Shown here in pieces: positions 3,002-62,333 of a stretch of 64,000 bases of DNA. The translations under genes and the position numbers were made by a program. Positions within the stretch are counted from its first letter, which is position 1. The number at the start of each line of letters is the position of its first letter. Source of the DNA: Escherichia phage vB_EcoM_Skers; sequence record MW748999.1. The stretch is one strand, 5' to 3'. A model generated the notes under the pieces. The model was given only the letters and a program-made list of their open reading frames with translations. It was not told where the DNA came from and searched no databases.

Positions 3002-3029
3002 ATTATACATCCTAACATCAGCATGTCAA
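3002..3029 (-). promoter_or_regulatory. sigma70-type early promoter TTGACA-N16-TATAAT (second copy of the 1777-1804 cassette)
   Basis: Minus strand GTTGACATGCTGATGTTAGGATGTATAATACAAACATCGAAACAAAGGAGGATAAAATTATG; shares about 33 bp with the 1746-1790 cassette. Confidence 0.7.
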
Positions 3030-4112: not shown

Positions 4113-4141
4113 ACTATATCAGATACTTAATTGCTTGTCAA
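4113..4141 (-). promoter_or_regulatory. sigma70-type promoter for gene 32 embedded in the 3' end of the upstream HNH gene
   Basis: Minus strand TTGACAAGCAATTAAGTATCTGATATAGT (TTGACA-N17-TATAGT), followed by a 46-nt AT-rich leader and SD AAGAGG. Confidence 0.6.
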
Positions 4142-4723
4142 TACTTTATCAATTATATCTAACAGTTTTGGCTTTCTATTTTCAAATTCTAACATCTCTT
4201 CGGGAGAAATGTCAACTACTTCTGTTTTGTTGAAAAAGTTTGGGTCTATAGCATCAGCAACAAAGTTTCTCGCAAGTGCTGCCGCTTTCTCATGAACATA
4301 TATTCCCAAATATATCAACTTCTTTCTTTCGACCTGAATATTGGCAACATATTTACCATCTCGTTTATAAAGACTAACACCGATATATTCAGACGATCGA
4401 CCTTTCTGTTTACCCATATTTCTTGAGTTTTGTTGCTCGTTCGCATCTCTCAAGTTTTCAATCCGATTATCTGTTATAATTCGGTTAACATGGTCAACGT
4501 ATTTTGGCATGTATCCATGATGCATAAAGAAAATTATTCTATGCTCTTTATGATGTTTACCATCGATACACACCAATCTGTATCCATGACTAGGATTAAC
4601 TCCACCCGCTCTAGATCCGACTTTATGCTTTCGGTTTGTCGATATCTTGCGAATCAGCTTACCGTTATCATATTTAAAGAGTTCATGACAACGAGCATAC
4701 AATTCAGGATCATATGTTTTCAC
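4127..4723 (-). CDS. free-standing HNH homing endonuclease with AP2 DNA-binding domain
   Basis: HNH_3-like HGYRLVCIDGKHHKEHRIIFFMHHG...VDHVNRIITDNRIENL followed by AP2-like SEYIGVSLYKRDGKYVANIQVERKKLIYLGIY; sits between 59 and 32 where T4 carries segG. Confidence 0.75.
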   Translation of the reverse strand: MKTYDPELYARCHELFKYDNGKLIRKISTNRKHKVGSRAGGVNPSHGYRLVCIDGKHHKEHRIIFFMHHGYMPKYVDHVNRIITDNRIENLRDANEQQNSRNMGKQKGRSSEYIGVSLYKRDGKYVANIQVERKKLIYLGIYVHEKAAALARNFVADAIDPNFFNKTEVVDISPEEMLEFENRKPKLLDIIDKVLTSN

Positions 4724-7708: not shown

Positions 7709-7716
7709 TATAAATA
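7709..7716 (+). promoter_or_regulatory. T4-type late promoter TATAAATA for gene 34
   Basis: Exact TATAAATA 29 nt upstream of ATG 7745, followed by SD AAGGAG. Confidence 0.7.
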
Positions 7717-18478: not shown

Positions 18479-18718
18479 ATGGTCTATAATATCGTCATTG
18501 GTGCTTTGTCTAATTTCGGAATGAAACTATTATCAAAGTTAATTAGTGAAAAGATGCTCACTAAAATTTTCTTCTACTGCGCTCGTCGTCTTGCGGCTTA
18601 TACCAATACGCCAATTGATGATCGTTTTGTGGAAGAACTTTATAAGGAGTTTAATAAAGATCAGTCAGAAGATAGTAACGAGCAAGATAAACCTAGTGAT
18701 AGTCAAGTACCTAAATAA
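18479..18718 (+). CDS. hypothetical small protein between 38 and t (hydrophobic N-terminus, acidic C-terminus)
   Basis: ORF track; SD AAGGAG 9 nt upstream of ATG. Confidence 0.55.
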   Translation: MVYNIVIGALSNFGMKLLSKLISEKMLTKIFFYCARRLAAYTNTPIDDRFVEELYKEFNKDQSEDSNEQDKPSDSQVPK

Positions 18719-18751: not shown

Positions 18752-19408
18752 ATGCAAGTTTCTGAAAAAGAGAAAGACTTTGCTATCTCAAATGTCCTGC
18801 GCGCTATTTTCACAACTAAAAGCACGGAGTTGCTCGTACTTCGTGTTTTTGCTGCCGTCGTGTTGTCCATATTAGCATTTGTCGTTTATAGTAAAAACGA
18901 GTTATTTGCCTTGTATAAAGAGACTCGTTATGAGACTTATGCTCACGTTCTCCAGGTAGAGAAAGACCGCAATTTTGATAATGCAGCACAGGAGCAGTTA
19001 CAGATAGTTCATGTGTCGGCTGATGCCGATTTTTCTGCTGTTTTTAGTTTTCGTCCGAAAAACCTAAACTATTTTGTTGATTTGGTGGCATATGAAGGAA
19101 AGCTACCACATACAATCGATGAAAAGAATTTAGGCGGATTCCCTATCAATAAAACGAGTGAAGAATATCGTAGGCATCTTTTAGGTAAATCATATTTTAC
19201 CGATAAAGATTTCCAGTATATTCCATCGAGGGAGAAAAAATTAGAGAATATCGATATAGGGTTTATGTATTCTTGTCCTATATTCAATCTCGATAATGTC
19301 TATTCTGGTAGTATTGCCATTGCATGGAAGAATAAACCAGATATTGACATTGAGAATTTAGATACTCTTTGTAATCAATCTGCCAGAATCCTCGGAAGGA
19401 TTAGATAA
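18752..19408 (+). CDS. t: holin t
   Basis: 218 aa, same as T4 holin; matches by recall LQIVHVSADADFSAVFSFRPKNLNYFVDLVAYEGKLP, FMYSCPIFNLDNVYSG, CNQSARILGR. Confidence 0.9.
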   Translation: MQVSEKEKDFAISNVLRAIFTTKSTELLVLRVFAAVVLSILAFVVYSKNELFALYKETRYETYAHVLQVEKDRNFDNAAQEQLQIVHVSADADFSAVFSFRPKNLNYFVDLVAYEGKLPHTIDEKNLGGFPINKTSEEYRRHLLGKSYFTDKDFQYIPSREKKLENIDIGFMYSCPIFNLDNVYSGSIAIAWKNKPDIDIENLDTLCNQSARILGRIR

Positions 19409-19413
19409 AATTA

Positions 19414-19448
19414 AAGGGGAAGCCTTTCGGCTTCCCCTTCTTTTTTTA
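19414..19448. terminator. bidirectional rho-independent terminator between convergent t and the minus-strand block
   Basis: Perfect 11-bp stem AAGGGGAAGCC-TTTC-GGCTTCCCCTT, T-run on the plus side and A/T-rich run on the minus side. Confidence 0.85.
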
Positions 19449-19694
19449 TTGACGCATAGACGCGCCTGAATCGCATTTTGACGCTGTGTGATGAAAACAG
19501 GTAGCGTACCAGTCATCGGCTTGTTTGTCTTCGTCAGAAAACGCGTAATTTCGTTGTACGCCGTTTTCTACTTTGACCAGTGCAATAGCTGTTTCTGGAA
19601 GATCAATCAATCGGACAAAATCGCCATCTTCCCATTCTACACGAGCAATATCATAGCCCATCTCAAAGTATACAATCGCTTGTTCTAATTTCAT
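19446..19694 (-). CDS. hypothetical protein (82 aa)
   Basis: ORF track; ATGA overlap with the upstream gene; not recognisably AsiA. Confidence 0.5.
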   Translation of the reverse strand: MKLEQAIVYFEMGYDIARVEWEDGDFVRLIDLPETAIALVKVENGVQRNYAFSDEDKQADDWYATCFHHTASKCDSGASMRQ

Positions 19695-20961: not shown

Positions 20962-21249
20962 TTATTTTCGGTTGTGGTCACGATATGTTTTAAAATATCC
21001 CTCGTACCACGGTAAAACATCTGGATTTTTACCACTATACAGACCTTTAACCATCATGTCAATAAGACCGTCCGGTGTTTGATAATTACCAGCTTTTATA
21101 AGCTCTCTGATTAAAATTTCCCTGTATATGTCTTTCGGATCTTCGTAATCAACTTGTATCGTTGTTGTGGTCTCATTCAATTTGGTTTCTGGAGTATCTT
21201 GCATCGCCTTCCACCAATCTTTTGTGATCTTCATGTTATTGAATTGCAT
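20962..21249 (-). CDS. hypothetical protein (95 aa)
   Basis: ORF track; tight packing. Confidence 0.5.
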   Translation of the reverse strand: MQFNNMKITKDWWKAMQDTPETKLNETTTTIQVDYEDPKDIYREILIRELIKAGNYQTPDGLIDMMVKGLYSGKNPDVLPWYEGYFKTYRDHNRK

Positions 21250-21260
21250 AATTTAACCTC

Positions 21261-22019
21261 TTACTTGCAAACGTATTGATCTACATCAATTGCGCCACCG
21301 AATGTAGGATGACGTTTTTCAAATCGAATAGTTCCGTCGTTTGGTTCGAAAACGGAGTATTCATATAGATCTTTCTTACCAACATTCTTATAAAACCCGC
21401 CTTTAGTCATAACGGTTTCTTGTACGTTTGCTTTGTGTACGTTGTATTCATCAATGTATACAAAATCAACCATCTTCCCATTTTTAATGGTTACTTTAAG
21501 ATCCCCTGGCTGGTTTCCATATTTTGCATACAGTGGAGCCTCTTTAATTTTGGTGGAAATTCCATCTTTCATACTCCACTCATAACGAACGGTGCATTGA
21601 TAGGTAAAAGTTTCGTCCTTCGGTTCTTCCACCACTTTTTCTTCCTGTTTCGGTTGTTCTTCGTCAACCTTTGCAGAAGTCTCTGAATCGCTTTCTGACG
21701 CGGTTTCTTCTTTAGGTAATACATTCATCAAGTTTTGGATTTGAGCGTTGTATACAGCCTCCAGTGGCTGAATCTGCCCGATATTGATCATTGTATCACG
21801 AACAGTTTTATTCCAGTTACGTTGTTCTTGTTTCAGAGATGGATCAATCTTAACAGCCTTAACATATACTTCATGAAGTTTCGAATCCAGTGCGGAAATT
21901 GACTCATTAGCACAAATAAACTTCTCTGATTTGGTAGTGGCTTTAGCGCAATCGAAGGACGCAGCATTAGCACCGAATGCAGTAGCAGAAAGAACGATAG
22001 CAGCGATAATGTTTTTCAT
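21261..22019 (-). CDS. exported protein with DUF1311 (LprI/lysozyme-inhibitor-like) N-terminal domain
   Basis: Signal peptide MKNIIAAIVLSATAFGANA; then SFDCAKATTKSEKFICANESISALDSKLHEVY...EQRNWNKTVRD matching the DUF1311 pattern. Confidence 0.6.
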   Translation of the reverse strand: MKNIIAAIVLSATAFGANAASFDCAKATTKSEKFICANESISALDSKLHEVYVKAVKIDPSLKQEQRNWNKTVRDTMINIGQIQPLEAVYNAQIQNLMNVLPKEETASESDSETSAKVDEEQPKQEEKVVEEPKDETFTYQCTVRYEWSMKDGISTKIKEAPLYAKYGNQPGDLKVTIKNGKMVDFVYIDEYNVHKANVQETVMTKGGFYKNVGKKDLYEYSVFEPNDGTIRFEKRHPTFGGAIDVDQYVCK

Positions 22020-22053
22020 AATATATTCCTCAGTGTTTTGTCTTGATGGGAGT

Positions 22054-22082
22054 ATATTACTACTCCCTTAATCCGGTGTCAA
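22054..22082 (-). promoter_or_regulatory. PeSL-like early promoter
   Basis: Minus strand TTGACA-N17-TAATAT with palindrome GGGAGTA-GTAATA-TACTCCC spanning the -10. Confidence 0.55.
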
Positions 22083-22089
22083 CTACTTT

Positions 22090-22245
22090 TTAAATTTCTT
22101 CTACAGTAAAGTCTTCAATGTTGTTGTGCTCGGAGAACGTTGCCAAACCAGCATCCCATGCATCATCCTCAGAGAAGAATACACCGTAACGTTCATATCC
22201 CTTAGCGCCTTCAAATTTAACCATTAATTTGTGAGTATGTTTCAT
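22090..22245 (-). CDS. hypothetical small protein (51 aa)
   Basis: Track ORF 22090..22332 runs through the upstream promoter; start set at ATG 22245 (MKHTHKLM) with SD AAGGAG. Confidence 0.45.
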   Translation of the reverse strand: MKHTHKLMVKFEGAKGYERYGVFFSEDDAWDAGLATFSEHNNIEDFTVEEI

Positions 22246-22276
22246 TTTGATTCTCCTTCGTTGTCTTGATGAGTTT

Positions 22277-22305
22277 AGTATAGGGGATCGCCGATCCCCT
22301 GTCAA
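22277..22305 (-). promoter_or_regulatory. PeSL-like early promoter
   Basis: Minus strand TTGACA-GGGGATCGGCGATCCCC-TATACT; the 17-nt spacer is a perfect palindrome. Confidence 0.65.
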
Positions 22306-22319
22306 CCAGTTTTTAGAAA

Positions 22320-22580
22320 TTATTTTCGCCATTCACCGGAAACAATGAAGTTTGTAAAGTGATTGTGGTCCGTGATAATGTCATTAAGTACCATATGCGG
22401 ATATGCTTTAGTGTAATCACGTTTACGATCAGTCATCCAACCAACGAAAGTCGGTGCAAAGTACGGCACACCGTCAGATGATGCCATATTAAACCCTTTA
22501 TCAGCCATAAATGCAGCCGCCCTAAGATTTTTAATTGAAGTAGTGCGACTAATTTCAAAAACTTTATCAGTAAAATTCAT
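22320..22580 (-). CDS. hypothetical protein (86 aa)
   Basis: ORF track; ATGA-type overlap with the upstream ORF. Confidence 0.5.
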   Translation of the reverse strand: MNFTDKVFEISRTTSIKNLRAAAFMADKGFNMASSDGVPYFAPTFVGWMTDRKRDYTKAYPHMVLNDIITDHNHFTNFIVSGEWRK

Positions 22581-22792
22581 TTTAAGCCCCCCGCTCGTGC
22601 ATTAATACGCATTTTCTGAATAGCCATGATCTGGCTTACTGCTTCTTCTTTACGTTCTTGCGTGATAACGTGACCAGATTCCGCAAACTCTCCAGCAACT
22701 TCTTCTACGATCTCGCGAACTTGAGAACGTCCAAAGATGCGGTTTCCTTCGTAGCTCATAAACTCTGTTACTACTTGCTCGATAGATTTCAT
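22577..22792 (-). CDS. hypothetical protein (71 aa)
   Basis: ORF track; SD AAGGAG upstream. Confidence 0.5.
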   Translation of the reverse strand: MKSIEQVVTEFMSYEGNRIFGRSQVREIVEEVAGEFAESGHVITQERKEEAVSQIMAIQKMRINARAGGLK

Positions 22793-22821
22793 GTGATTCT
22801 CCTTTTGTTTGGTATGGGAGT

Positions 22822-22850
22822 ATGTTACTACTCCCTTATCTTTACGTCAA
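22822..22850 (-). promoter_or_regulatory. PeSL-like early promoter
   Basis: Minus strand TTGACG-N17-TAACAT overlapping palindrome GGGAGTA-TGTTAC-TACTCCC. Confidence 0.5.
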
Positions 22851-22857
22851 CTAGTTT

Positions 22858-23100
22858 TTAGAAATTTTTCGCTTCTTCTTCGGTCATCATCACCGCGCAT
22901 TCGTGCATAACTTTGAAAACCGGGTCAATCATATCGAATGCTTCGCGAGACAATTTACGAGAAGCGATTTTGATTGCTTCAACGTCTTCTACTACAGGAA
23001 CAAAAACAGTTTTCAGTTCATCGAGAACGGCAGCTTCTTTTTCATTCAGGAAGATTCCAGCGTCGTACAATGCAACTTCGATAACATTAACTTTAACCAT
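22858..23100 (-). CDS. hypothetical protein (80 aa)
   Basis: Track ORF 22858..23163 starts with TTG inside the promoter; start set at ATG 23100 (MVKVNVIEV) with SD GGAGG. Confidence 0.5.
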   Translation of the reverse strand: MVKVNVIEVALYDAGIFLNEKEAAVLDELKTVFVPVVEDVEAIKIASRKLSREAFDMIDPVFKVMHECAVMMTEEEAKNF

Positions 23101-23134
23101 TTTTATTTCCTCCAGTTCGTTTCGGTATGGGAGT

Positions 23135-23163
23135 ATAATACTACCGATGACCTTTGGCGTCAA
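23135..23163 (-). promoter_or_regulatory. early promoter TTGACG-N17-TATTAT
   Basis: Minus strand TTGACGCCAAAGGTCATCGGTAGTATTAT. Confidence 0.5.
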
Positions 23164-23365
23164 CTAGTTTTTTGTTATTTTCGTGAAATTTTTTCGTCGC
23201 CTCATGTGCTTTTCGCTGGGCTTCTAGTTGTGCTTTCTGGCGTGCTGCCTCTTGTGAAGCCATAACGGAAGCATTTGCAGCAGTTACAGCCGCGACCATC
23301 GCTGCGGTATTAGCATTTACCGTACATGCACTAGCCAGCAAAGCAATCGCAATCATTTTCTTCAT
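23141..23365 (-). CDS. small exported protein (signal peptide or possible lipoprotein)
   Basis: N-terminus MKKMIAIALLASACTVNANT (hydrophobic core plus LASAC); Ala/Gln/Lys-rich mature part. Confidence 0.5.
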   Translation of the reverse strand: MKKMIAIALLASACTVNANTAAMVAAVTAANASVMASQEAARQKAQLEAQRKAHEATKKFHENNKKLVDAKGHR

Positions 23366-23601
23366 AGTTTCCCCTTTAGGTTATCTTCGACCTTCACCCA
23401 TTCCGCGTATTCTTGCGCGGCTACTTTCGGATTTAGTCCGTCTTCGTACATTGCTTCAAGTAATTCTTCGTCGGTGGGCTTATACCCTAGATAAGCCTCC
23501 ACCTGATTTTTCCAAATTTTATACCAGTTCATATTATCACCAATCAAGAGCGCGTGTCTCTGCGTCTTCCCATGCTTGATCCATAACAGCCTTGAAAACA
23601 T
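23362..23601 (-). CDS. hypothetical protein (79 aa)
   Basis: ORF track; ATGA overlap with the downstream gene. Confidence 0.45.
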   Translation of the reverse strand: MFSRLLWIKHGKTQRHALLIGDNMNWYKIWKNQVEAYLGYKPTDEELLEAMYEDGLNPKVAAQEYAEWVKVEDNLKGKL

Positions 23602-23809
23602 ATTCTAGAGTATCATCTTTAGAGAATCCGAAGACTTTAGACGGAATATCTTCAATTGCTACTCCCGCAACTTCTGCATTACGCGCTTGGCAATAATGCA
23701 ACTCTAAGTTATCGAGATAGCGACCGCCTAATTTCTCCATATCATCCCAACATTTCCAGTAACCTACTTTATCTGCAATTGCCAACACTTTGCTGTTTTC
23801 GTTGTTCAT
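23537..23809 (-). CDS. hypothetical protein (90 aa)
   Basis: Track ORF 23537..23902 runs through promoter and terminator; start set at ATG 23809 (MNNENSK) with SD AAGGAG. Confidence 0.5.
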   Translation of the reverse strand: MNNENSKVLAIADKVGYWKCWDDMEKLGGRYLDNLELHYCQARNAEVAGVAIEDIPSKVFGFSKDDTLEYVFKAVMDQAWEDAETRALDW

Positions 23810-23840
23810 CTTTGATTCTCCTTTTGTTTGGTATGGGTGT

Positions 23841-23869
23841 ATTATGCAATGCTGGATTATGGAAGTCAA
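23841..23869 (-). promoter_or_regulatory. early promoter TTGACT-N17-CATAAT
   Basis: Minus strand TTGACTTCCATAATCCAGCATTGCATAAT. Confidence 0.5.
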
Positions 23870-23881
23870 ACAACTTTTCAA

Positions 23882-23911
23882 ATAAAAAAAAGCCGACCAC
23901 AAGGATCGGCT
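23882..23911 (-). terminator. rho-independent terminator
   Basis: Minus-strand RNA AAGCCGAUCCUUGUGGUCGGCU followed by UUUUUUUUAUU. Confidence 0.75.
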
Positions 23912-23921
23912 TAATAGTCAG

Positions 23922-24293
23922 TTACTTACTAAATTTCTTTTTGGCTTCGTCTACTGCATGAGATGCTAGTACCGCTGCCGCATGTGCACTTTTATCTGTG
24001 TTGCAGAGAACACCCAGATAAACATCACGCCAAAGTTTAATCATCTCGTAGATCATATCAATATCATTTTCTTGTTTGTTGGCGATGCTATTCATCGTTA
24101 TCTGGTAAGGCAACGGCTTGATCTGTACTGGTTCCGCCATCGGGCTAATCGGTTTCGGATCAGTCATAATAGGTGCTGTTGTTGGTGGTGTTTTCCATAC
24201 ACCATTATTCCACGGTTTAATCGTTGTATCGTAAAGTTTATAAGGATTTTTGTCTGGATTAACCATCCAGGCATGATGAAGTACCCAAACCAT
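23922..24293 (-). CDS. hypothetical protein (123 aa, Pro-rich middle)
   Basis: ORF track. Confidence 0.5.
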   Translation of the reverse strand: MVWVLHHAWMVNPDKNPYKLYDTTIKPWNNGVWKTPPTTAPIMTDPKPISPMAEPVQIKPLPYQITMNSIANKQENDIDMIYEMIKLWRDVYLGVLCNTDKSAHAAAVLASHAVDEAKKKFSK

Positions 24294-24310: not shown

Positions 24311-24520
24311 TCAGTCATACTTTCCCTCCAAAAATTCTTTCATCAAATAGTCTATCGTTGCTCTGTGTTCTGGTGTGTTTGTTATCTCTGCTAACTTGTT
24401 CAGAGATTCAATAGTGATCCGGTTGGCTTCTTCCATAGTCTCAACGACCATCGGTACAATCTTTTTATTGTTGTACACGAAAGCCACATAACCGCCTTCT
24501 GGATATTCTTTCATAATCAA
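24311..24520 (-). CDS. hypothetical protein (69 aa)
   Basis: ORF track; ATGA overlap with the gene 52 stop. Confidence 0.5.
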   Translation of the reverse strand: MIMKEYPEGGYVAFVYNNKKIVPMVVETMEEANRITIESLNKLAEITNTPEHRATIDYLMKEFLEGKYD

Positions 24521-25878
24521 CCCTTCTTAAGTTCTTTAAGATCTTTCTTATATTCCTTCATTGCGGTCGTCTTTGTCCAATACTCATATTCACTATGATG
24601 TTTATCGGCATCTTTGACCAGTCGATCATACTCTTCTTGAGTAACGCTATACAATGGCATAGAAACGAGCTTATCGGCATATGGGCGAAGTTTTTCATGT
24701 TCATTGATGGATTGCATTACCTCGGCCTTTTTCTTGCCCTGTAGCTCGATTTCGCCCTTAATTACGCGGTCGATAAATTCGGCTTTAGCCATTGCATAAT
24801 TGTATGCTTCCAGCGTTTCCGCTTGCATCAATTCAATGCGTTTATCGACATAGCCTAATCGGATTTCGACGAATCGACGGATCAGATCGCTCGCTTTCTC
24901 GAATACTTCTACTAAACCACGTTCGTTAACTACTACGATATTCTGGGCTACTAACTGCGTTAGTTTAAAATCCTTCATGATTTGCTCATGTCGAGCGGAT
25001 TCATCTTCGCTTTTGAAATAATCGCGTTTCAGTGTTACCTCAAATCTGAATCCGTCCTTAGAGCAACGGTCATTATACGATACAATCAGATCTTTTTCTT
25101 CCAGTGCATCCAGTACCGCTACATATTCTTCACGGTCGAACTTATAAGGAACTTCTGATATTGTCAGTTTAGTCTTGCCGTTTAGTTCATATGTACCCTC
25201 AAGAATCACACCATCGCGATCATCTCGCGGGATAACTTTACCCGTGAATTTCGGGAATTGAACACTAGGTTCTTTATCCAGTTTTCCGGCAAGTGCTAGC
25301 TCTGTGCATTCAATAAGGCTTTCCAATGAATGCGGTAAAATGTCAGTTTTATACCCTGTAGCAATACCACTAATACCATTAGCCAATACCATTGGCACAA
25401 CTGGCAAGTAGAACGCTGGCGGGATGTGTTCCAGATCTTCGTGCTTAGGTGCGCAATTCATATCTTTATAGATTTTAAAGAAGTTTTCATGCACACGAGC
25501 AAAGATATAACGTGCCGCACCTGCTTTCTGGACTAAACGCGATCCGAAGTTACCTTGACCGTCAAGCAGTGGAGTATTATTGCTCCATGTATTCGCCATA
25601 AGTGATCCGGCTTCTACGGCATTAGTTTCCCCGTGGTGATAACCCAACTCAGCAACACCAGATCCAATATCTGCCATCTTACGGAATTTCTTACGGTCGC
25701 CTTTACTCTTTTGAAGTGCGCACTCCATAACAAAGCGTTGTACTGGTTTAAGCCCATCTACCAATTGAGGAATCCCGCGTTCCTCGGCAGAATAGATCGC
25801 ATATTCCTTAGCTTCATTATGTACAATGCTTTCAAGGCTGCGGTAAGTAACTGATTTATTCATCTTCACCTCATACAC
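24517..25878 (-). CDS. 52: DNA topoisomerase II medium subunit gp52 (GyrA-like)
   Basis: GyrA-type motifs LVDGLKPVQRF, DGQGNFGS, AARYIFARV; strong match to T4 gp52 by recall. Confidence 0.9.
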   Translation of the reverse strand: MYEVKMNKSVTYRSLESIVHNEAKEYAIYSAEERGIPQLVDGLKPVQRFVMECALQKSKGDRKKFRKMADIGSGVAELGYHHGETNAVEAGSLMANTWSNNTPLLDGQGNFGSRLVQKAGAARYIFARVHENFFKIYKDMNCAPKHEDLEHIPPAFYLPVVPMVLANGISGIATGYKTDILPHSLESLIECTELALAGKLDKEPSVQFPKFTGKVIPRDDRDGVILEGTYELNGKTKLTISEVPYKFDREEYVAVLDALEEKDLIVSYNDRCSKDGFRFEVTLKRDYFKSEDESARHEQIMKDFKLTQLVAQNIVVVNERGLVEVFEKASDLIRRFVEIRLGYVDKRIELMQAETLEAYNYAMAKAEFIDRVIKGEIELQGKKKAEVMQSINEHEKLRPYADKLVSMPLYSVTQEEYDRLVKDADKHHSEYEYWTKTTAMKEYKKDLKELKKG

Positions 25879-30877: not shown

Positions 30878-30907
30878 ATAAGTCAACCTTTTGTTTTCGA
30901 TGGGGAT

Positions 30908-30936
30908 ATTATGATATATCCCCGATCCGGTGTCAA
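30908..30936 (-). promoter_or_regulatory. PeSL-like early promoter
   Basis: Minus strand TTGACA-N17-CATAAT overlapping palindrome GGGGATAT-ATCATA-ATATCCCC. Confidence 0.55.
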
Positions 30937-30943
30937 CAGATTT

Positions 30944-31243
30944 TTAATCTTTTTTCAGTGCATCCATTACTCGCTCTGCGATCAGTTCTCTTAAGCACTG
31001 ATAACCATGATATTTGATGGCAATGTCACGCAGATCATTAACCAGTTCCCGTACTTCATGGTCTTTCAGATCGTCTCTGTATTTCGATTTAATCGTATCT
31101 TTAGGTGGATTGCGGATAACCTGAAAACCTTGTTCTGCAATCACTGCGGCTTCTCGCTGGCGTTCATGCTGTACTGTATTTTTGATCAGGTCTGCTTCCA
31201 TGAACTTTGCCACACTCATCATCATGTTATTCTTTTTGCTCAT
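30944..31243 (-). CDS. hypothetical protein (99 aa)
   Basis: Track ORF 30944..31324 overlaps the gene 39 3' end and the promoter; start set at ATG 31243 (MSKKNN) with SD GAGGA. Confidence 0.5.
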   Translation of the reverse strand: MSKKNNMMMSVAKFMEADLIKNTVQHERQREAAVIAEQGFQVIRNPPKDTIKSKYRDDLKDHEVRELVNDLRDIAIKYHGYQCLRELIAERVMDALKKD

Positions 31244-31277
31244 CGTTAAATCCTCATAAAAGAAAAGGGAGACTCCC

Positions 31278-31305
31278 ATTATAGAGAATCTCCCTTGTAT
31301 GTCAA
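31278..31305 (-). promoter_or_regulatory. PeSL-like early promoter immediately downstream of gene 39
   Basis: Minus strand TTGACATACAAGGGAGATTCTCTATAAT with GGGAGA...TCTCCC palindrome. Confidence 0.55.
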
Positions 31306-31308
31306 GTG

Positions 31309-33132
31309 TTATGATTGCATCCAAATTTTGCGTTGATCTGCATCTTCACTATAGAGCAAATCGAATAGCTCTTTATAGTTTTCCGGTAACGTGATGATCT
31401 CCATTACAGGATCGTTGATCACGCGATGATAATCTGATTCTGTAAGCGATGCTAACCCTTTGATATATCGAATGTTGTAACCTTTGATATTATCTCGGTC
31501 GTTCTCGAAATCTTCTAGGTCATAATACCATCGAACATCATCACCTTTCTTTGGTTCCGCAATGATAATAGGTGTTTTGATAAACCGGATTCGACCATCT
31601 TCGAACAATTCAGGCCAACGAGCAAAGAAAGAGATCAGACTAGGCTTAATAGACCCGATCCCGTCGGTATCAGCGTCTGTCATAATCGCAATATTTTTGT
31701 ATTGCATAACTTCCAATGCATCAACACCAAATTGCAAACCAGTGATCGCCATGATGTTAAAAATTTCAGCGTTCTTAACGATCTTTGCCTCCGGTTGTTC
31801 CCACGTTGTAAGAGTTTTGCCTCGCAACGGGAAACCGCCATGTAAATCTTGATCACGTACAGAGATCAGATAGTTGATCGCGGAATCACCTTCCGTCAAA
31901 AACAGGGTAGTTTCTGCGTCAGTTCCAATAAGGTTAGCTTTAACGTGCTTTGCTACCTTAGCCCGTTTTGCTGCCTTTGCTGCCTTAGTCGCTGCCGCTT
32001 TATCTGCTGCCTCTTTGCGTGCCAGGACTACAGCAATAATAGGCATGATAATGTTTTCTTTCTTCGCAATGACTTTAGCCAGCTTTTTAAAATCAAGATC
32101 AATATGACGCTTGATATCACCAGTCGGGTTAGTCAAGCGTTCTTTTGTCTGTGAATCAAAACGAAGGTTAGGCAATTCACGAACAATAAGAATACAGGTC
32201 AATCCAGATTTAACCGCAGCTTTAGTAACATCAACCTTATATTCTTTTTTGATTCGTTTTACAATCTCTTCACAAAGATCATCTGTCACATAATCAACGT
32301 GTGTTCCCCCGTTTTTGGTAAACAGACCGTTAGCAAAGGATACTGATTTAAAACCTTCTCCCTCGACCGCCGGAACGAGGGCAAGTGAAAAGTTTTTATC
32401 TTCAATGACAAACGGATCATCATTGTATAGTTTGGCATAATCCTTGAACTTGCTGGTTATCTTTTTGCCATTAAACTTAAACGTGATCTTAGGAAAGATT
32501 ACACTCAATGAATACATTCGATCGCAAATCACATCTGAAATTTCTTGTGACATGATCATACCTTCAAAATGATCGAAATCGGGGCAGAACGTAACCTTAG
32601 TTCCTTTCAGTTTTGACGGCTTAGATGACCAGCTAATATTTTCTGCACCATTGGTACATTGAACGGTCAGTTCATTCTCTCCGTCACACGTCACACCAGT
32701 AAACCAGGACGAGAAAAATGATGTGAGCGCGCTTCCGATCCCATTCATACCCATAGTAACACGATTTGTATCATCAAAGTTAGACCCTGCTTTAGCTCGT
32801 GTCCATGCAGCAACTGGTTGTGGAATCTGTTTCCCCTCTGGCGTCGTAACAATATGTTGCGGAATACCGCGACCATTATCTGTTACTGACACAATGTTAT
32901 CTTTTATATCCACACTAATAACATTAGCGTACTCAAAATTAGTGCGGATCGCCTCGTCTACCGAGTTGTCGATGATCTCATCAATGATTTTAACCAGTCC
33001 AGGAACGTATGAAACTTTGGTCCATTTTCCAAATAGGAAACGATTGTGTGATTCATAAGTCGTTGACCCGATGTACATTGAAGGTCTCTTAAGACAGTGA
33101 GCGCGATCATCTAACAGCAAAAATTCAGACAT
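31309..33132 (-). CDS. 39: DNA topoisomerase II large subunit, fused gp39/gp60 form (GyrB-like ATPase plus Toprim)
   Basis: 607-aa single ORF; GyrB-like N-terminus (RPSMYIGS, DNGRGIP) and Toprim EGDSA; no split or bypass as in T4 gene 60. Confidence 0.85.
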   Translation of the reverse strand: MSEFLLLDDRAHCLKRPSMYIGSTTYESHNRFLFGKWTKVSYVPGLVKIIDEIIDNSVDEAIRTNFEYANVISVDIKDNIVSVTDNGRGIPQHIVTTPEGKQIPQPVAAWTRAKAGSNFDDTNRVTMGMNGIGSALTSFFSSWFTGVTCDGENELTVQCTNGAENISWSSKPSKLKGTKVTFCPDFDHFEGMIMSQEISDVICDRMYSLSVIFPKITFKFNGKKITSKFKDYAKLYNDDPFVIEDKNFSLALVPAVEGEGFKSVSFANGLFTKNGGTHVDYVTDDLCEEIVKRIKKEYKVDVTKAAVKSGLTCILIVRELPNLRFDSQTKERLTNPTGDIKRHIDLDFKKLAKVIAKKENIIMPIIAVVLARKEAADKAAATKAAKAAKRAKVAKHVKANLIGTDAETTLFLTEGDSAINYLISVRDQDLHGGFPLRGKTLTTWEQPEAKIVKNAEIFNIMAITGLQFGVDALEVMQYKNIAIMTDADTDGIGSIKPSLISFFARWPELFEDGRIRFIKTPIIIAEPKKGDDVRWYYDLEDFENDRDNIKGYNIRYIKGLASLTESDYHRVINDPVMEIITLPENYKELFDLLYSEDADQRKIWMQS

Positions 33133-33138
33133 ATTATA

Positions 33139-33897
33139 TCATTCTCCGTCAGTTCGTTTCAGGTATTCCAATGCCGCATATAATCTTTGAGGATCGTCTT
33201 TGAACATCCCTAATCCGGCATTACATTTTCCACAAAGAACACCTCTTATCTTACCAGTCTTATGATTATGGTCAAGATGTTTCCACTTTTGGCGTTTTCT
33301 CTCGCCGCATCGTTCATTTATGAATTTTACACCGCATATCTCGCAATTGTCAACTCTGCCTAAAATTTCTAACGCTTCTCTTTTTGATATTTTTATACCA
33401 TTTTCGGCATGATGATATGGCCTATCTAGTTCTCGCTCTCGCTTCTCAAACAATCGACACTCATCAGAACAATACTTTTGAGATGCGTTTATTGCAACAA
33501 ATGGTTTACCACATTTAGCGCATTCTCGTTCAATCTTTATGTTTTGTGCCTGGTCCAACGATGCGCAACGAGAACAGCAAAATTTATGATAGCCTCTAGA
33601 GTATGTATGATAATTTACAGGATTTGGGCATCTTGCACACTTAACTATTCCTGTTATTCCGTGGCGCAATCTATAAACAGCCTCGTTATATGGTTGTTGA
33701 TTTCTGAGACCTCCATTACAGAACTTAAACTCATTCCTTATAATCTGAAATTCCGCAGGATACAATTTTTCCATTTCTGGAATTTTATTTTCTTTAAAAA
33801 GATTTGAGTTTAGTCTATTTCCGCTTTTCGCCTCCAGAACATCAACAATAAACTTTTTGATGTTCACTTTTCTCTCTCCAATACATAACATAACCAT
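33139..33897 (-). CDS. Endonuclease VII-type nuclease with Cys-rich zinc-ribbon N-terminal region; probable free-standing homing endonuclease
   Basis: C-terminal HLDHNHKTGKIRGVLCGKCNAGLGMF matches the T4 endo VII (gp49) catalytic motif; N-terminal CxxC pairs CARCP...CCSRC, CAKCG...CSDEC. Confidence 0.65.
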   Translation of the reverse strand: MVMLCIGERKVNIKKFIVDVLEAKSGNRLNSNLFKENKIPEMEKLYPAEFQIIRNEFKFCNGGLRNQQPYNEAVYRLRHGITGIVKCARCPNPVNYHTYSRGYHKFCCSRCASLDQAQNIKIERECAKCGKPFVAINASQKYCSDECRLFEKRERELDRPYHHAENGIKISKREALEILGRVDNCEICGVKFINERCGERKRQKWKHLDHNHKTGKIRGVLCGKCNAGLGMFKDDPQRLYAALEYLKRTDGE

Positions 33898-33969
33898 AAC
33901 TTACTGCAACCGCCACAAAGACGGCTGCAACAATCATATTAAAAATTGAGTGATTGTCAAGTATATGAC

Positions 33970-37936: not shown

Positions 37937-38440
37937 TTAAATTAAAGAAAATTTGTAAATCTCTATCAGATCGCCATTACACGCGTAAACTTCCTCGATC
38001 TCATCAAGGATCATGGTCGTCCCTGTCTTGTATATGCACTCGCGCTCATCTGCCAACATAGCATACAAAGACAGTCGAGTAGTCGGATTGTCATACTCTT
38101 TAGACACCACTCGGTCAATAGCATGTTCGTAATAATTCATGCAAGGCTTGGTAGGTTTTATTGCAATAATCTTTCCTGTTGCATAAACATCGGTTGCAAA
38201 GTCCTCTGCTGTTGATTGCAGTGGCGTAAAGCTCATAGGACGCTCTACAACGAAAGAATCGCCTACAATTAAGGTATCCAGCTTACGGCCTTCTCTTTTG
38301 CTCACACCGCGATACAAGGCTTCATGATGCACTAACCGCTCAGTCTTTTCAATCAATCCATTAAGGATCGACATATCGATATTTTCTTTAGAGTTCATCA
38401 CCTCATCAATGATGTTAAGTTCTTCTGGTGTAAATTGCAT
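37937..38440 (-). CDS. putative ADP-ribosyltransferase (Mod-like), tentative
   Basis: 167 aa at the T4 modA/modB position; candidate R-S-E triad (YRGVS, LQSTAED, ADERE); weak evidence. Confidence 0.4.
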   Translation of the reverse strand: MQFTPEELNIIDEVMNSKENIDMSILNGLIEKTERLVHHEALYRGVSKREGRKLDTLIVGDSFVVERPMSFTPLQSTAEDFATDVYATGKIIAIKPTKPCMNYYEHAIDRVVSKEYDNPTTRLSLYAMLADERECIYKTGTTMILDEIEEVYACNGDLIEIYKFSLI

Positions 38441-38473
38441 AATAAAAAAGCCTCCAATCTTTCGACGGGAGGC
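38441..38473 (-). terminator. rho-independent terminator whose 3' arm doubles as the SD of the downstream gene
   Basis: Minus-strand RNA GCCUCCC-GUC-GAAA-GAU-UGGAGGC followed by UUUUUUAUU and then AUG. Confidence 0.7.
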
Positions 38474-38502
38474 ATAATAAAACCATTATAGAGTAGTGTC
38501 AA
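38474..38502 (-). promoter_or_regulatory. early promoter TTGACA-N17-TATTAT immediately upstream of the terminator hairpin
   Basis: Minus strand TTGACACTACTCTATAATGGTTTTATTAT, 8 nt after the gene 56 stop. Confidence 0.55.
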
Positions 38503-47491: not shown

Positions 47492-47523
47492 AATATAAAC
47501 TCCTTCACTTACGAAAGACACTC

Positions 47524-47552
47524 ATTATAGGGGAATCGACCTAGTTTGTCAA
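47524..47552 (-). promoter_or_regulatory. early promoter TTGACA-N17-TATAAT for gene 43
   Basis: Minus strand TTGACAAACTAGGTCGATTCCCCTATAAT, with TAGGGG...CCCCTA palindrome around it. Confidence 0.6.
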
Positions 47553-47573
47553 TACCCCTATCCCATCAGTATC

Positions 47574-47936
47574 TTATCGCCCGATCTGATATTTCTCTAT
47601 CAGCGTCCACTCTTCTTTCTGTTTGAAAGACAGTACACGGAAATTATTAACTTCGGTAGTTTCAAAATCACTATCAATCAGGGTACACAGATTCCACTGC
47701 GCCAGAAGTTTTGCAATGTTATTACGGCGTAATTCATCTTCCCACGTCATTTTAACACTACGACCATCTAATTTCAACAACTCCTTGAAATGAACGATGT
47801 AATAGCGCCCTTTCTTCTGGAGAATATGACAAGACTGATACAGTGTCTTGTCACGATTGTTGGCAATGCCGCAGCGGGTTAAAGTTTCCTTAATTTTAAG
47901 GAAGTTTTCAGGACTAATCAAATTAATTTCAATCAT
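47574..47936 (-). CDS. regA: translational repressor RegA
   Basis: Matches T4 RegA by recall (ETLTRCGIANNRDKTLYQSCHILQKKGRYYIVHFKE, NNFRVLSFKQKEEW). Confidence 0.9.
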   Translation of the reverse strand: MIEINLISPENFLKIKETLTRCGIANNRDKTLYQSCHILQKKGRYYIVHFKELLKLDGRSVKMTWEDELRRNNIAKLLAQWNLCTLIDSDFETTEVNNFRVLSFKQKEEWTLIEKYQIGR

Positions 47937-54314: not shown

Positions 54315-54339
54315 AACAACCTCCAATCAATTTTTAGAG

Positions 54340-54368
54340 AGTATAACGGGGATTTCTCCCCGCGTCAA
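54340..54368 (-). promoter_or_regulatory. PeSL-like early promoter
   Basis: Minus strand TTGACG-CGGGGAGAAATCCCCGT-TATACT; spacer is a hairpin with GAAA loop. Confidence 0.6.
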
Positions 54369-55394
54369 CTAACTTTTTGCGCTATTTACTTCGGCTAAAA
54401 GTTCATCAGAAATACGCTTGACCGCCGCAAGTTCTTCCGGTTCTAGGTTTTGTTCTTCCAGATATTCATAGACCATCTGAATAGTGCTTTTAACTTCAAT
54501 AACACCTGTTTCCTGTGATGCGCTACTCTCCAGCTTATGGACCACTTTTAGCTTGTGCACAACGGACTCTAACGCGCTTTCTAACTTAGTTAACCCATTA
54601 TCAGCGACCGTTGCGATAAGACGCACACTAAGCCCTTTAAAGCGTTCTACGTCGATTTTATCATCTGACGGGTAAGTGATACGCACATGATAAGTTTTGT
54701 CATTCTGAATAAACTCTTTTTTGTGTGTATCGGTATCGAATACCCAAAAACCACGAGGGTCGTTTTCGTCACCCGCCGTTAGTGTGTATGGTGTACCGAT
54801 ATATGTTACGTTACCGCCATCGCTGATAGTATGAAAATGACCGGAAAACACTTCACGGTATTTCTTTAGGAAGTCCGCGCTATAACCTTCGGATTTTAGT
54901 CCTTTATAGAAATAGTAGCCAGACAATTCCCAATGGCCTACACAATATTCACTGAATGAGTTTTGAATAAACTCTAAAATCTCTGATTTATTGTCATCAC
55001 AAAACCACGGGAACAGATCAAATGATACACCATCAAAGGTAACTGTTTCCGGTTTATCGATAACCTTAATGCAATCATACTGGCTTAACACTTCACGCGG
55101 TGCGTTAGGCTGGATCTTGTTTCGTTTAAACATATCATGATTCCCGACCGTGGTATAACAAGTAATATCAGCCTCTTCCAGTAACGGGATGACCTTAGTA
55201 CGGTTAAATTTCATGGTTTCATGGGTAATTGCTTTTCGGCAATCAAACCAATCCCCTGTTTGAATCCATGTCTTAATATTATGCTCTTTGGAGTATTCAA
55301 CCGCTTTCTTGATGGTATCAAGAATATACTCATGCACCCACGGATCATCGCCACCGATACCAGTATGCAGATCACCCAAAAGCAAAATTTTCAT
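54369..55394 (-). CDS. 47: recombination nuclease subunit gp47 (Mre11/SbcD-like)
   Basis: Calcineurin-like phosphoesterase motifs LLGDLH, GDWFD, GNHD; 341 aa (T4 339 aa). Confidence 0.9.
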   Translation of the reverse strand: MKILLLGDLHTGIGGDDPWVHEYILDTIKKAVEYSKEHNIKTWIQTGDWFDCRKAITHETMKFNRTKVIPLLEEADITCYTTVGNHDMFKRNKIQPNAPREVLSQYDCIKVIDKPETVTFDGVSFDLFPWFCDDNKSEILEFIQNSFSEYCVGHWELSGYYFYKGLKSEGYSADFLKKYREVFSGHFHTISDGGNVTYIGTPYTLTAGDENDPRGFWVFDTDTHKKEFIQNDKTYHVRITYPSDDKIDVERFKGLSVRLIATVADNGLTKLESALESVVHKLKVVHKLESSASQETGVIEVKSTIQMVYEYLEEQNLEPEELAAVKRISDELLAEVNSAKS

Positions 55395-55435
55395 AGTCTC
55401 TTCCTCTCTTCGTTTTCGATGCTCTCACTATATCA

Positions 55436-61724: not shown

Positions 61725-61766
61725 ATTTGATTCTCCTGTAAAGTTGTATCTCGTCTTGATGAATAT

Positions 61767-61795
61767 AGTATAGGGGATCTCGCGATCCCCGTCAA
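61767..61795 (-). promoter_or_regulatory. PeSL-like early promoter
   Basis: Minus strand TTGACG-GGGATCGCGAGATCCCC-TATACT; palindromic 17-nt spacer. Confidence 0.65.
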
Positions 61796-61799
61796 GCAT

Positions 61800-62333
61800 T
61801 TATTTTAAATTTTTTCGAATGTATTCAGACCATTCCTTCCCTGTCATTTCGGACCCATTCTGGAAACTGAAATATTCATACGGCATCGAGTCAAGATAAA
61901 ACAGGATCATACATCGCGCCATATAATACCAATCACGATTAAAGTAAACTACGTTATCGCCAGTACCATCAGCACCTTTATCATAACCATCGCGGGTACG
62001 GGCGACCCATTGAATGGTATCATTTTTCTCACGGATAGTAACAGGTTCCCAATATCCAGCACATCCAGCATGACCACACGAACAAGTAAGGAAATATTGA
62101 CCTTTTGCTTTGTTGTCATCCCATTCACGATGAATTGGTTCGATTTCGTGAAACAGTGCTAAGCAATCATGATTATGCAACACTGGCTCACCATCAATCA
62201 ATGCATGGAATGTATACAAACGACCCGTAGACAAATAGCTATCCTCACGCTCAACCAGTTCAATAGCAATCTTTTTAGCTTGTTCTTTGTGTCGTTGTGC
62301 TTTACGTTTACGGTTTAATGATTTCATAGTCAC
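61800..62333 (-). CDS. hypothetical protein (177 aa; Cys/His cluster CSCGHAGCAGYW)
   Basis: ORF track. Confidence 0.5.
   Translation of the reverse strand: MTMKSLNRKRKAQRHKEQAKKIAIELVEREDSYLSTGRLYTFHALIDGEPVLHNHDCLALFHEIEPIHREWDDNKAKGQYFLTCSCGHAGCAGYWEPVTIREKNDTIQWVARTRDGYDKGADGTGDNVVYFNRDWYYMARCMILFYLDSMPYEYFSFQNGSEMTGKEWSEYIRKNLK

Follow-up and report, generated by a model that had tools for sequence, protein, structure and literature searches.

Between positions 22020 and 23921 of a 64-kb stretch of the genome of Escherichia phage vB_EcoM_Skers (MW748999.1; the whole stretch is referred to below as the window), the minus strand carries five compact promoters, each part of an element that also holds an inverted repeat, and these five elements are very probably RB49-type promoter-early stem-loop (PeSL) cassettes of the hyperplastic interval between genes t and 52, working by the mechanism set out below. 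PeSLs were defined in phages RB49 and phi1, at ~51–52 per genome (Arbiol et al. 2010, Genome Biol Evol 2:140; PMC2839356), as composites of an AT-rich tract, a promoter of sigma-70 consensus, a stem-loop that is often polyG...polyC and occupies any of five positions, and a Shine–Dalgarno (SD) sequence with start codon, mostly upstream of ORFans in hyperplastic regions (PMC2839356). The RB49 type has been summarised as G(n)-loop-C(n) with TTGACA-N17-TATAAT (Comeau et al. 2014; PMC4122927). All of these sequence-level features were found here: promoter, AT-rich tract, stem-loop position, SD and ATG, ORFan and hyperplastic setting, and association with insertions and deletions (indels), in DNA that is 95–97% identical to RB49 and other Krischvirus. 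An earlier sequence-only reading of the window had noticed the promoters and likened them to PeSL cassettes; its observation is confirmed, far above chance, and its interpretation is supported by the sequence comparisons reported here, for a feature already known from this genus. Both the kind of element and the genus are published.

All features described below lie on the minus strand unless stated otherwise. Numbered in the direction of transcription, the promoters pair a −35 hexamer with a −10 hexamer as follows: TTGACT (23864–23869) with CATAAT (23841–23846) in PeSL 1, TTGACG (23158–23163) with TATTAT (23135–23140) in PeSL 2, TTGACG (22845–22850) with TAACAT (22822–22827) in PeSL 3, TTGACA (22300–22305) with TATACT (22277–22282) in PeSL 4 and TTGACA (22077–22082) with TAATAT (22054–22059) in PeSL 5. 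Spacers are exactly 17 bp in 5/5, each site matches 9–11 of the 12 sigma-70 consensus positions, and in every −10 hexamer the second base is A and the sixth is T. An SD sequence (GGAG or GAGG) follows in all five, with the ATG at 31, 34, 29, 31 and 34 nucleotides (nt) past the −10, respectively. The 20 nt 5′ of each −35 are 75–85% A+T, with the whole window at 59.5%, and in four elements a stop codon lies 7–50 nt before the −35, the upstream open reading frame (ORF) of PeSL 2 ending within the spacer; measured from the upstream stop codon to the next start codon, each element is ~70–110 bp long. When the pattern TTGACN-N17-(TAnnnT or CATAAT) was counted against 1000 dinucleotide-preserving shuffles, the region held five sites versus a shuffle mean of 0.04 (maximum 2), and the whole window held 28 on the minus strand, all on the coding strand, and none on the plus strand, versus 1.86 in shuffles, giving enrichments of >100-fold and ~15-fold, respectively. 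The sequence-only reading had reported at least five TTGAC(A/G)-N17 promoters in 1.9 kb, each directly upstream of one small ORF. The number stood, as did the position just ahead of an ORF start, and four −35 hexamers are as it described, but PeSL 1 reads TTGACT, the five promoters serve eight ORFs, and the promoter at 23163 overlaps the 3′ end of the preceding ORF.

We infer from their sequence that these sites are sigma-70-type early promoters, active in vivo. The early-promoter consensus of RB49 agrees with 5′-end mapping, as cited in PMC1524935, and our own census of ~20 credible PeSL elements in the 64-kb window agrees with the published density of 51–52 per 164 kb; several of them match sites that the RB49 record annotates as early promoters, among them the one upstream of gene 43 (18504–18532 of that record). 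Late expression of the cassette units was considered and rejected, as the region is without the T4-type late promoter TATAAATA, whose only occurrences in the window, at 7709 and 12820, are on the plus strand. The sequence-only reading had also linked the promoters to a lack of recognisable motA or asiA after t, and the 16 ORFs between t and gene 52 indeed gave no match to the MotA and AsiA Pfam families at E ≤ 0.01. RB49 is likewise reported to be without a motA orthologue, asiA or a middle-promoter consensus (PMC1524935). This already published absence is a correlate that bears on transcription strategy and not evidence that the sites are promoters.

The second component of the elements is the hairpin. 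That of PeSL 4 (22283–22299) fills the spacer with GGGGATCGGCGATCCCC, a 7-bp stem with a 3-nt loop (GGGGATC-GGC-GATCCCC), and those of PeSL 3 (22816–22835; GGGAGTA-gtaaca-TACTCCC) and PeSL 5 (22048–22067; GGGAGTA-gtaata-TACTCCC) span the −10, the hexamer making up most of the loop. PeSL 2 has an imperfect, degenerate counterpart across its −10 (GGtAGTAttaTACTCCC, 23129–23145), and PeSL 1, whose spacer is without a palindrome, has a canonical 9-bp terminator hairpin upstream of its −35 (23890–23912; 23880–23912 with the T8). The region therefore agrees with the earlier description of several perfect palindromes in or across the spacer, with three perfect (one in the spacer and two across the −10), one degenerate and one upstream terminator, and it samples three of the five described PeSL positions: spacer, across the −10 and upstream of the −35. 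GGGAGTA-N6-TACTCCC occurs twice in the window and not at all in shuffles, and a perfect stem of ≥6 bp in the spacer or −10 accompanies 8 of the 28 promoter-like sites, versus 0.08 per shuffled window. RNA folding gave z scores of −2.8, −2.4 and −2.6 for PeSL 3, PeSL 4 and PeSL 5, a weak −1.5 for the degenerate PeSL 2, and −2.2 to −5.9 for eight of the ten elements folded, five here and five elsewhere in the window. Neither Rfam at gathering thresholds nor the tRNA/tmRNA scan returned anything from the whole window, so the hairpins are not a catalogued RNA family.

Conservation sets the stems apart from their surroundings. Across orthologues of four PeSLs, the stem arms vary in 0 of 56 columns and the −35 in 0 of 24, versus 18 of 48 for the loop and non-stem spacer (Fisher 1e-7). 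The 11 orthologues of PeSL 3 keep constant stem arms around a variable loop and −10, variation among the nine orthologues of PeSL 4 is confined to the 3-nt loop, and the 3′ arm of the degenerate PeSL 2 hairpin is variable; the −10 hexamer in the loop changes freely (TAACAT, TATTAT, TAAGAT, TAATAT, TAAAAT). Since the 5′ arm lies in the spacer, which is not read base by base by sigma-70, this constraint is best explained by the inverted repeat itself. Pairing as RNA is supported by that conservation, by the differing stem sequences of paralogous PeSLs and by G.U pairs that are possible on the sense strand only, in the hairpins of the window elements at 31305 and 47552. It is very improbable that the elements are primarily terminators or 3′-end stabilisers of the upstream gene and only secondarily resemble promoters: PeSL 1 does end its hairpin in T8, and a hairpin with T-run is also present in the window elements at 31305, 43512, 49578, 62941 and 3029, but the −35 hexamers are invariant, the 17-bp spacing is exact in all five, the full promoter pattern is enriched in both region and window, and in published reporters PeSL promoters were so strong that most clones gained −35 or −10 mutations (PMC2839356). 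On the opposite strand, the −10-type hairpin at 22816–22835 is followed by T-rich TTATCTTT and was scored as a plus-strand terminator by the terminator scan; its counterpart is annotated as a terminator in the Makalu003 record, and it might keep antisense transcription out of the early units.

The promoters divide the eight ORFs, seven in the interval plus the 252-amino-acid (aa) o262, into units of three, one, two, one and one, leaving three ORFs without a promoter of their own. PeSL 1 (23810–23921) runs from the terminator hairpin and T8 through the AT-rich tract and promoter to the leader ACACCCATACCAAACAAAAGGAGAATCAAAG and an ATG at 23809, and its unit (23141–23809) comprises o266 (23537–23809; 90 aa) and o265 (23362–23532; 56 aa), both in unknown-function families of PHROGs, and o74 (23141–23365; 74 aa, with a hydrophobic N-terminus and no PHROGs match); neither o265 nor o74 has its own promoter. 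The −35 and spacer of PeSL 2 (23101–23182) overlap the 3′ end of o74, whose TAG stop is at 23141–23143, and this element precedes the single-ORF cassette o80 (22858–23100; 80 aa, no Pfam or PHROG family). PeSL 3 (22793–22870), built of AT-rich tract, promoter, hairpin across the −10 and leader ATACCAAACAAAAGGAGAATCAC and containing repeat families D2–D4, heads a unit (22320–22792) of o264 (22577–22792; 71 aa) and the promoterless o263.1 (22320–22580; 86 aa), joined by an ATGA stop/start overlap. PeSL 4 (22246–22319) precedes the single-ORF cassette o263 (22090–22245; 51 aa), and PeSL 5 (22020–22100) drives o262 (21261–22019), the first gene of its unit and homologue of RB49 ORF262, which combines a signal-peptide-like N-terminus with an LprI/DUF1311 'lysozyme inhibitor' domain (PF07007, 1.1e-5). 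No credible intergenic promoter was found 3′ of o262 down to 19446, the matches at 21062 and 20957 falling in coding or SD sequence. None of the seven small ORFs has a Pfam family, and where PHROGs gives a match it is to a family of unknown function; we suggest that annotations mark the sites as early promoters/PeSLs and list the small ORFs as accessory early genes without an assigned function.

By its sequence, this phage is a Krischvirus, an RB49-like T4-type coliphage. RB49 is collinear with the window over its full length, and gene order runs from td/frd through genes 32, 59, 34–37, t, the ORF255–268 interval, gene 52, rIIB/rIIA and gene 39 onward to nrdD. The elements lie between holin t (18752–19408; Phage_holin_T 5e-61) and topoisomerase gene 52 (24517–25878). 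The surrounding 4 kb match 58 phage records at 90–99% identity, all RB49-like (genus Krischvirus), with FL15 closest at 97% and RB49 at ~96%; several match places per record could be explained by short cross-matches among paralogous PeSLs. Over the interval we compared 12 relatives (RB49, FL15, kaaroe, MIZ4, Sf20, Makalu003, FL04, SSG23, W115, E26 and two IMG/VR contigs), among which gene content varies.

This variation follows the elements. At least five independent presence/absence units were identified among the relatives, each with at least one junction inside a PeSL, and in three of the five both junctions lie in PeSLs, leaving in-register chimeric elements. The window reads o267, PeSL, o266–o265–o74, PeSL, o80, PeSL, o264–o263.1, PeSL, o263, PeSL, o262. 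RB49 is without o74, o80 and o263.1; Sf20 without o74, o80 and o263; FL15 and kaaroe without o263; MIZ4 without o263.1 and o263; and E26, the nearest arrangement found, without o74 only, whereas Makalu003, FL04 and SSG23 have, upstream of o266, an additional 68-aa ORF together with a PeSL of its own. Thus o74 is absent from RB49, Sf20 and E26, and o263, present in 35 Krischvirus records, from FL15, kaaroe, MIZ4 and Sf20. With o80 present in 31 Krischvirus records, all four combinations of o80 and o263 occur (both in W115, o80 only in FL15, o263 only in RB49, neither in Sf20), which requires recombination or repeated loss. The o263.1 product is 100% identical to phi1 ORFan263.1, listed as a phi1-specific differential ORF of the hyperplastic region (PMC2839356).

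Junctions could be placed within the elements themselves. FL15, kaaroe and MIZ4 have one chimeric PeSL in place of two, with the upstream flank of the left element joined to the right element, which takes over in the AT-rich tract immediately before the −35, with no base lost or gained. PeSL 5 supplies the right half of the chimera in all three, and in FL15 and kaaroe PeSL 4 contains the left breakpoint of the o263 deletion. For the cassette of the 68-aa ORF, the crossover lies in the leader CCCATACCAAACAAAAGGAGA common to the elements, within a 24-nt identical patch. All mapped crossovers are 5′ of the −35 or in the leader, beside the hairpin, and none is in it. The families of direct repeats coincide with pieces of PeSLs, including a 30-nt leader patch at 97% (22794–22823 versus 23813–23842) and a 25-nt hairpin patch at 96%. 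Element and gene are also re-paired: the core GGGAGTAG-TANNAT-ACTCCC, in fixed register with the −35, stands upstream of at least six unrelated ORFs, o264 follows in an ECD7-like contig the TTGACT/CATAAT PeSL, which in the window serves o266, and o266 follows a GGGAGTA-type PeSL in the genomes with the 68-aa ORF, so that one ORF can be served by different PeSLs in different genomes. In a scan of IMG/VR for the GGGAGTAG-TANNAT-ACTCCC promoter core, only three contigs were found, all Krischvirus-like, and the subtype was not detected there outside such contigs. The sequence-only reading had seen here a cluster built of shuffled single-gene cassettes. Shuffling is supported by these junctions and pairings, but the units comprise one to three genes and relocation was not seen for the two cassettes searched.

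Several observations weigh against the PeSL reading in its recombinational part. Coding-only queries for o80 and o263 match one syntenic place per record, in Krischvirus only, so gain and loss occur at a fixed locus and movement to other loci is without evidence for the two cassettes searched. Exact identity at the AT-rich junctions is short, ~5–10 bp, and two of the five indels, o263.1 and the o74–o80 block, have a single junction in a PeSL (the right one, in the AT-rich tract), the left being the 3′ end of the preceding ORF. Selection against gene-disrupting deletions alone would enrich intergenic breakpoints, and intergenic DNA in this interval is almost all PeSL, so that any viable breakpoint falls in one. 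The short identity, the single junctions and the predominance of PeSL in intergenic DNA also favour another account, in which the sites are ordinary strong early promoters with incidental palindromes, indels arise illegitimately or by microhomology, selection keeps the intergenic ones, and PeSLs are no more than permissive sites. We consider it unlikely, given the excess of perfect stems over shuffled windows, stem arms as constant as the −35 hexamer beside variable neighbouring columns, chimeras exactly in register, and one junction in a 24-nt identical patch. Furthermore, PeSL–PeSL recombination was proposed for ORFan gain and loss in RB49 and phi1, where PeSL mini-circles were detected experimentally (PMC2839356); the o263 and o80 cassettes, each flanked by PeSLs, would be obvious candidates for such circles.

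The role of the hairpins meets objections of its own. Promoter and terminator activity in this genome are both deduced from its sequence, the three perfect hairpins of the region have no following U-tract and so are not canonical intrinsic terminators (only PeSL 1 of the five has one), and there are no compensatory base changes to count, as stems never vary among orthologues; their invariance could also reflect gene conversion among copies or a constraint at the DNA level. The inverted repeats might accordingly act as DNA, as cruciforms or as targets of a phage-encoded protein (a structure-specific nuclease or shut-off factor, for instance), starting recombination or silencing early promoters instead of attenuating RNA. 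Hairpins inside a promoter, in the spacer or −10, are outside that promoter's own transcript, the describing authors themselves speculated that the GGGG...CCCC motif is the target of a DNA-binding protein (PMC2839356), and the window encodes Endonuclease_7-domain and HNH proteins. We nevertheless regard this as quite unlikely, since the stems differ among PeSLs (GGGGATC, GGGAGTA, CGGGGA, GGGGATAT) and so offer no single operator, two hairpins need G.U pairs that form on the sense strand only, crossovers map away from the stems, and in the lacZ constructs that showed PeSL promoter and terminator activity the stem-loop tested for the latter, that of PeSL211/210 only, was a strong terminator (PMC2839356). 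A narrower proposal, improbable in our view, is that the hairpins extrude as cruciforms and are cut or bound by a structure-specific phage protein (endonuclease VII or an Endonuclease_7/HNH-domain protein), the breaks starting recombination in the adjacent homology patches; if true, PeSLs would be recombination hotspots actively targeted by a nuclease, comparable to integron attC sites but embedded in promoters, and not passive homology.

Under the PeSL reading, each element combines a UP-like tract rich in A/T with a sigma-70 promoter close to consensus (TTGACN, 17 bp, −10), a hairpin of G-run and C-run and an A/C-rich unstructured leader with a strong SD, and would act in three steps. Unmodified host RNA polymerase would start at each promoter just after infection and express a short unit of one to three ORFans, as suggested by the promoter consensus and the published RB49 data. 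Because the predicted start lies just 3′ of the hairpin C-run, the hairpin would form only on read-through RNA from the upstream unit, where it may attenuate or terminate transcription or stabilise the 3′ end, insulating the units from one another; this placement fits the published attenuator/terminator role. Finally, since the elements hold 18–30-nt near-identical patches, phage recombination could cross over between neighbouring or incoming PeSLs, deleting or inserting whole ready-to-express units, a step whose footprints are seen as in-register chimeric PeSLs at indel junctions.

The same architecture recurs elsewhere in the window at 30908, 31278, 47524, 54340 and 61767, as the sequence-only reading had stated; these positions are −10 ends, with −35 starts at 30936, 31305, 47552, 54368 and 61795, and hairpins are present in 5/5. 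The element before the RB49 ORF004 homologue (30878–30956; TTGACA-N17-CATAAT, z = −2.5) has the hairpin GGGGATAT-N6-ATATCCCC across its −10. Between gene 39 and the ORF005 homologue (31244–31325; TTGACA-N16-TATAAT, z = −4.1), the loop of a 12-bp hairpin with two sense-strand G.U pairs is the −10 hexamer, and a T-run comes after the stem. The element before gene 43, the DNA polymerase gene (47492–47580; z = −5.9), holds TTGACA-N17-TATAAT inside a long imperfect hairpin, and PeSLs have been reported on both sides of gene 43 (PMC2839356). The remaining two share TTGACG-N17-TATACT with spacer hairpins, CGGGGA-gaaa-TCCCCG between gene 47 and the ORF038 homologue (54315–54390; z = −2.2) and GGGGATC-gcga-GATCCCC before the ORF053 homologue (61725–61815; z = −3.0). 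A related arrangement upstream of modB (38440–38502) has TTGACA-N17-TATTAT and, in its own leader, a hairpin with T-run (GCCTCC...GGAGGC TTTTTT) whose 3′ arm contains the SD, and which could attenuate transcription or mask translation.

Further differences from RB49 were noted along the window. A 252-aa ORF with an Endonuclease_7 domain (33139–33897; PF02945, 6e-16) stands just upstream of gene 39, with a promoter-like site at 33960, and the ~800-bp segment 33079–33884 is unmatched in RB49; the ORF probably represents an inserted endonuclease of homing type. A 198-aa ORF (4127–4723) that lies between genes 32 and 59 has an HNH_3 match (2.2e-11) and a sub-threshold AP2 match (23.4 bits, cut-off 33.3), with no RB49 counterpart there, and the RB49 HNH-AP2 endonuclease ORF040, located between gene 47 and a-gt.4, is missing from the window, with the junction near 55391–55395; homing-endonuclease mobility would fit this gain and absence. 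Downstream of gene 32, a 392-aa ORF (1793–2971) contains three CapR-homology repeats with a treble-clef zinc finger (PF21817, 2e-28; PF14311); its segment 2107–2969 is unmatched by RB49 ORF240, and it stands behind a hairpin-less promoter at 3029. Another 392-aa ORF, with a different N-terminal sequence, follows a GGGAGTA-type PeSL in the IMG/VR Krischvirus contigs L013 and L014.

Within the hyperplastic interval itself, homologues of o263.1 at 32–43% identity were found in ~50-kb T1-like siphoviruses of Salmonella, Citrobacter, Klebsiella and Escherichia, identifying it as an accessory gene common to unrelated phage families, and o262 has a variant with a divergent C-terminal half in E26 and one IMG/VR contig. 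The first ORF past holin t (19446–19694; 82 aa), homologue of RB49 ORF255, matches the Thoeris anti-defence 2-like family Tad2-like (PF11195; E = 2.4e-6, 28.4 bits, cut-off 25) and is a possible anti-defence gene. Compared with seven relatives, o267 has a one-base insertion at ~24279–24280 (GGGTACT to GGGTACTT) that displaces the reading frame 13 codons into the gene, leaving 123 aa from an internal ATG at 24293 in place of 131 aa from 24318; either the sequence is in error here or the frameshift is real.

Few concrete mechanisms have been proposed by which T4-type phages swap accessory genes and still express them correctly, and PeSLs are among them. The window offers a clean extra example that supports the published model and, as dozens of Krischvirus genomes are now public, a convenient test locus, with no new kind of element. 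What it adds is modest: junction maps for five indel units, one core shared by many ORFs and one ORF served by different PeSLs, a constraint on the stems equal to that on the −35, and crossovers placed beside the hairpin. Like the morons of lambdoid phages and the cassettes of integrons, PeSL units are single genes or small groups with their own expression signals, gained and lost between conserved genes. Morons were reportedly described by Hendrix and colleagues in 2000, and we know of no conserved flanking repeat that mediates their exchange. In integrons, recombination relies on attC hairpins together with a dedicated integrase, and the cassettes are usually promoterless, whereas no integrase is known for PeSLs and their crossovers map outside the hairpin. 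Closer are the PeSL/PmSL elements of T4/PST and KVP40/nt-1 (PMC4122927), likewise composites of promoter and stem-loop beside indels in hyperplastic regions. Unlike the RB49 type of the window, their promoters depart from the sigma-70 consensus (TTTACW...TAYWAT and TTGYVH...TAWWAT), their stems are AGNA/TCNT or A3–4G3/C3T3–4 and lie upstream of the promoter, and some are MotA-type middle promoters (PMC4122927). With the PeSLs of RB49 and phi1, the five elements share genus, build, three of the five hairpin positions, ORFan and hyperplastic setting, indel association and density; they differ in nothing of kind, and what is the window's own is its combination of cassettes, o263 with o263.1, o80 and o74.

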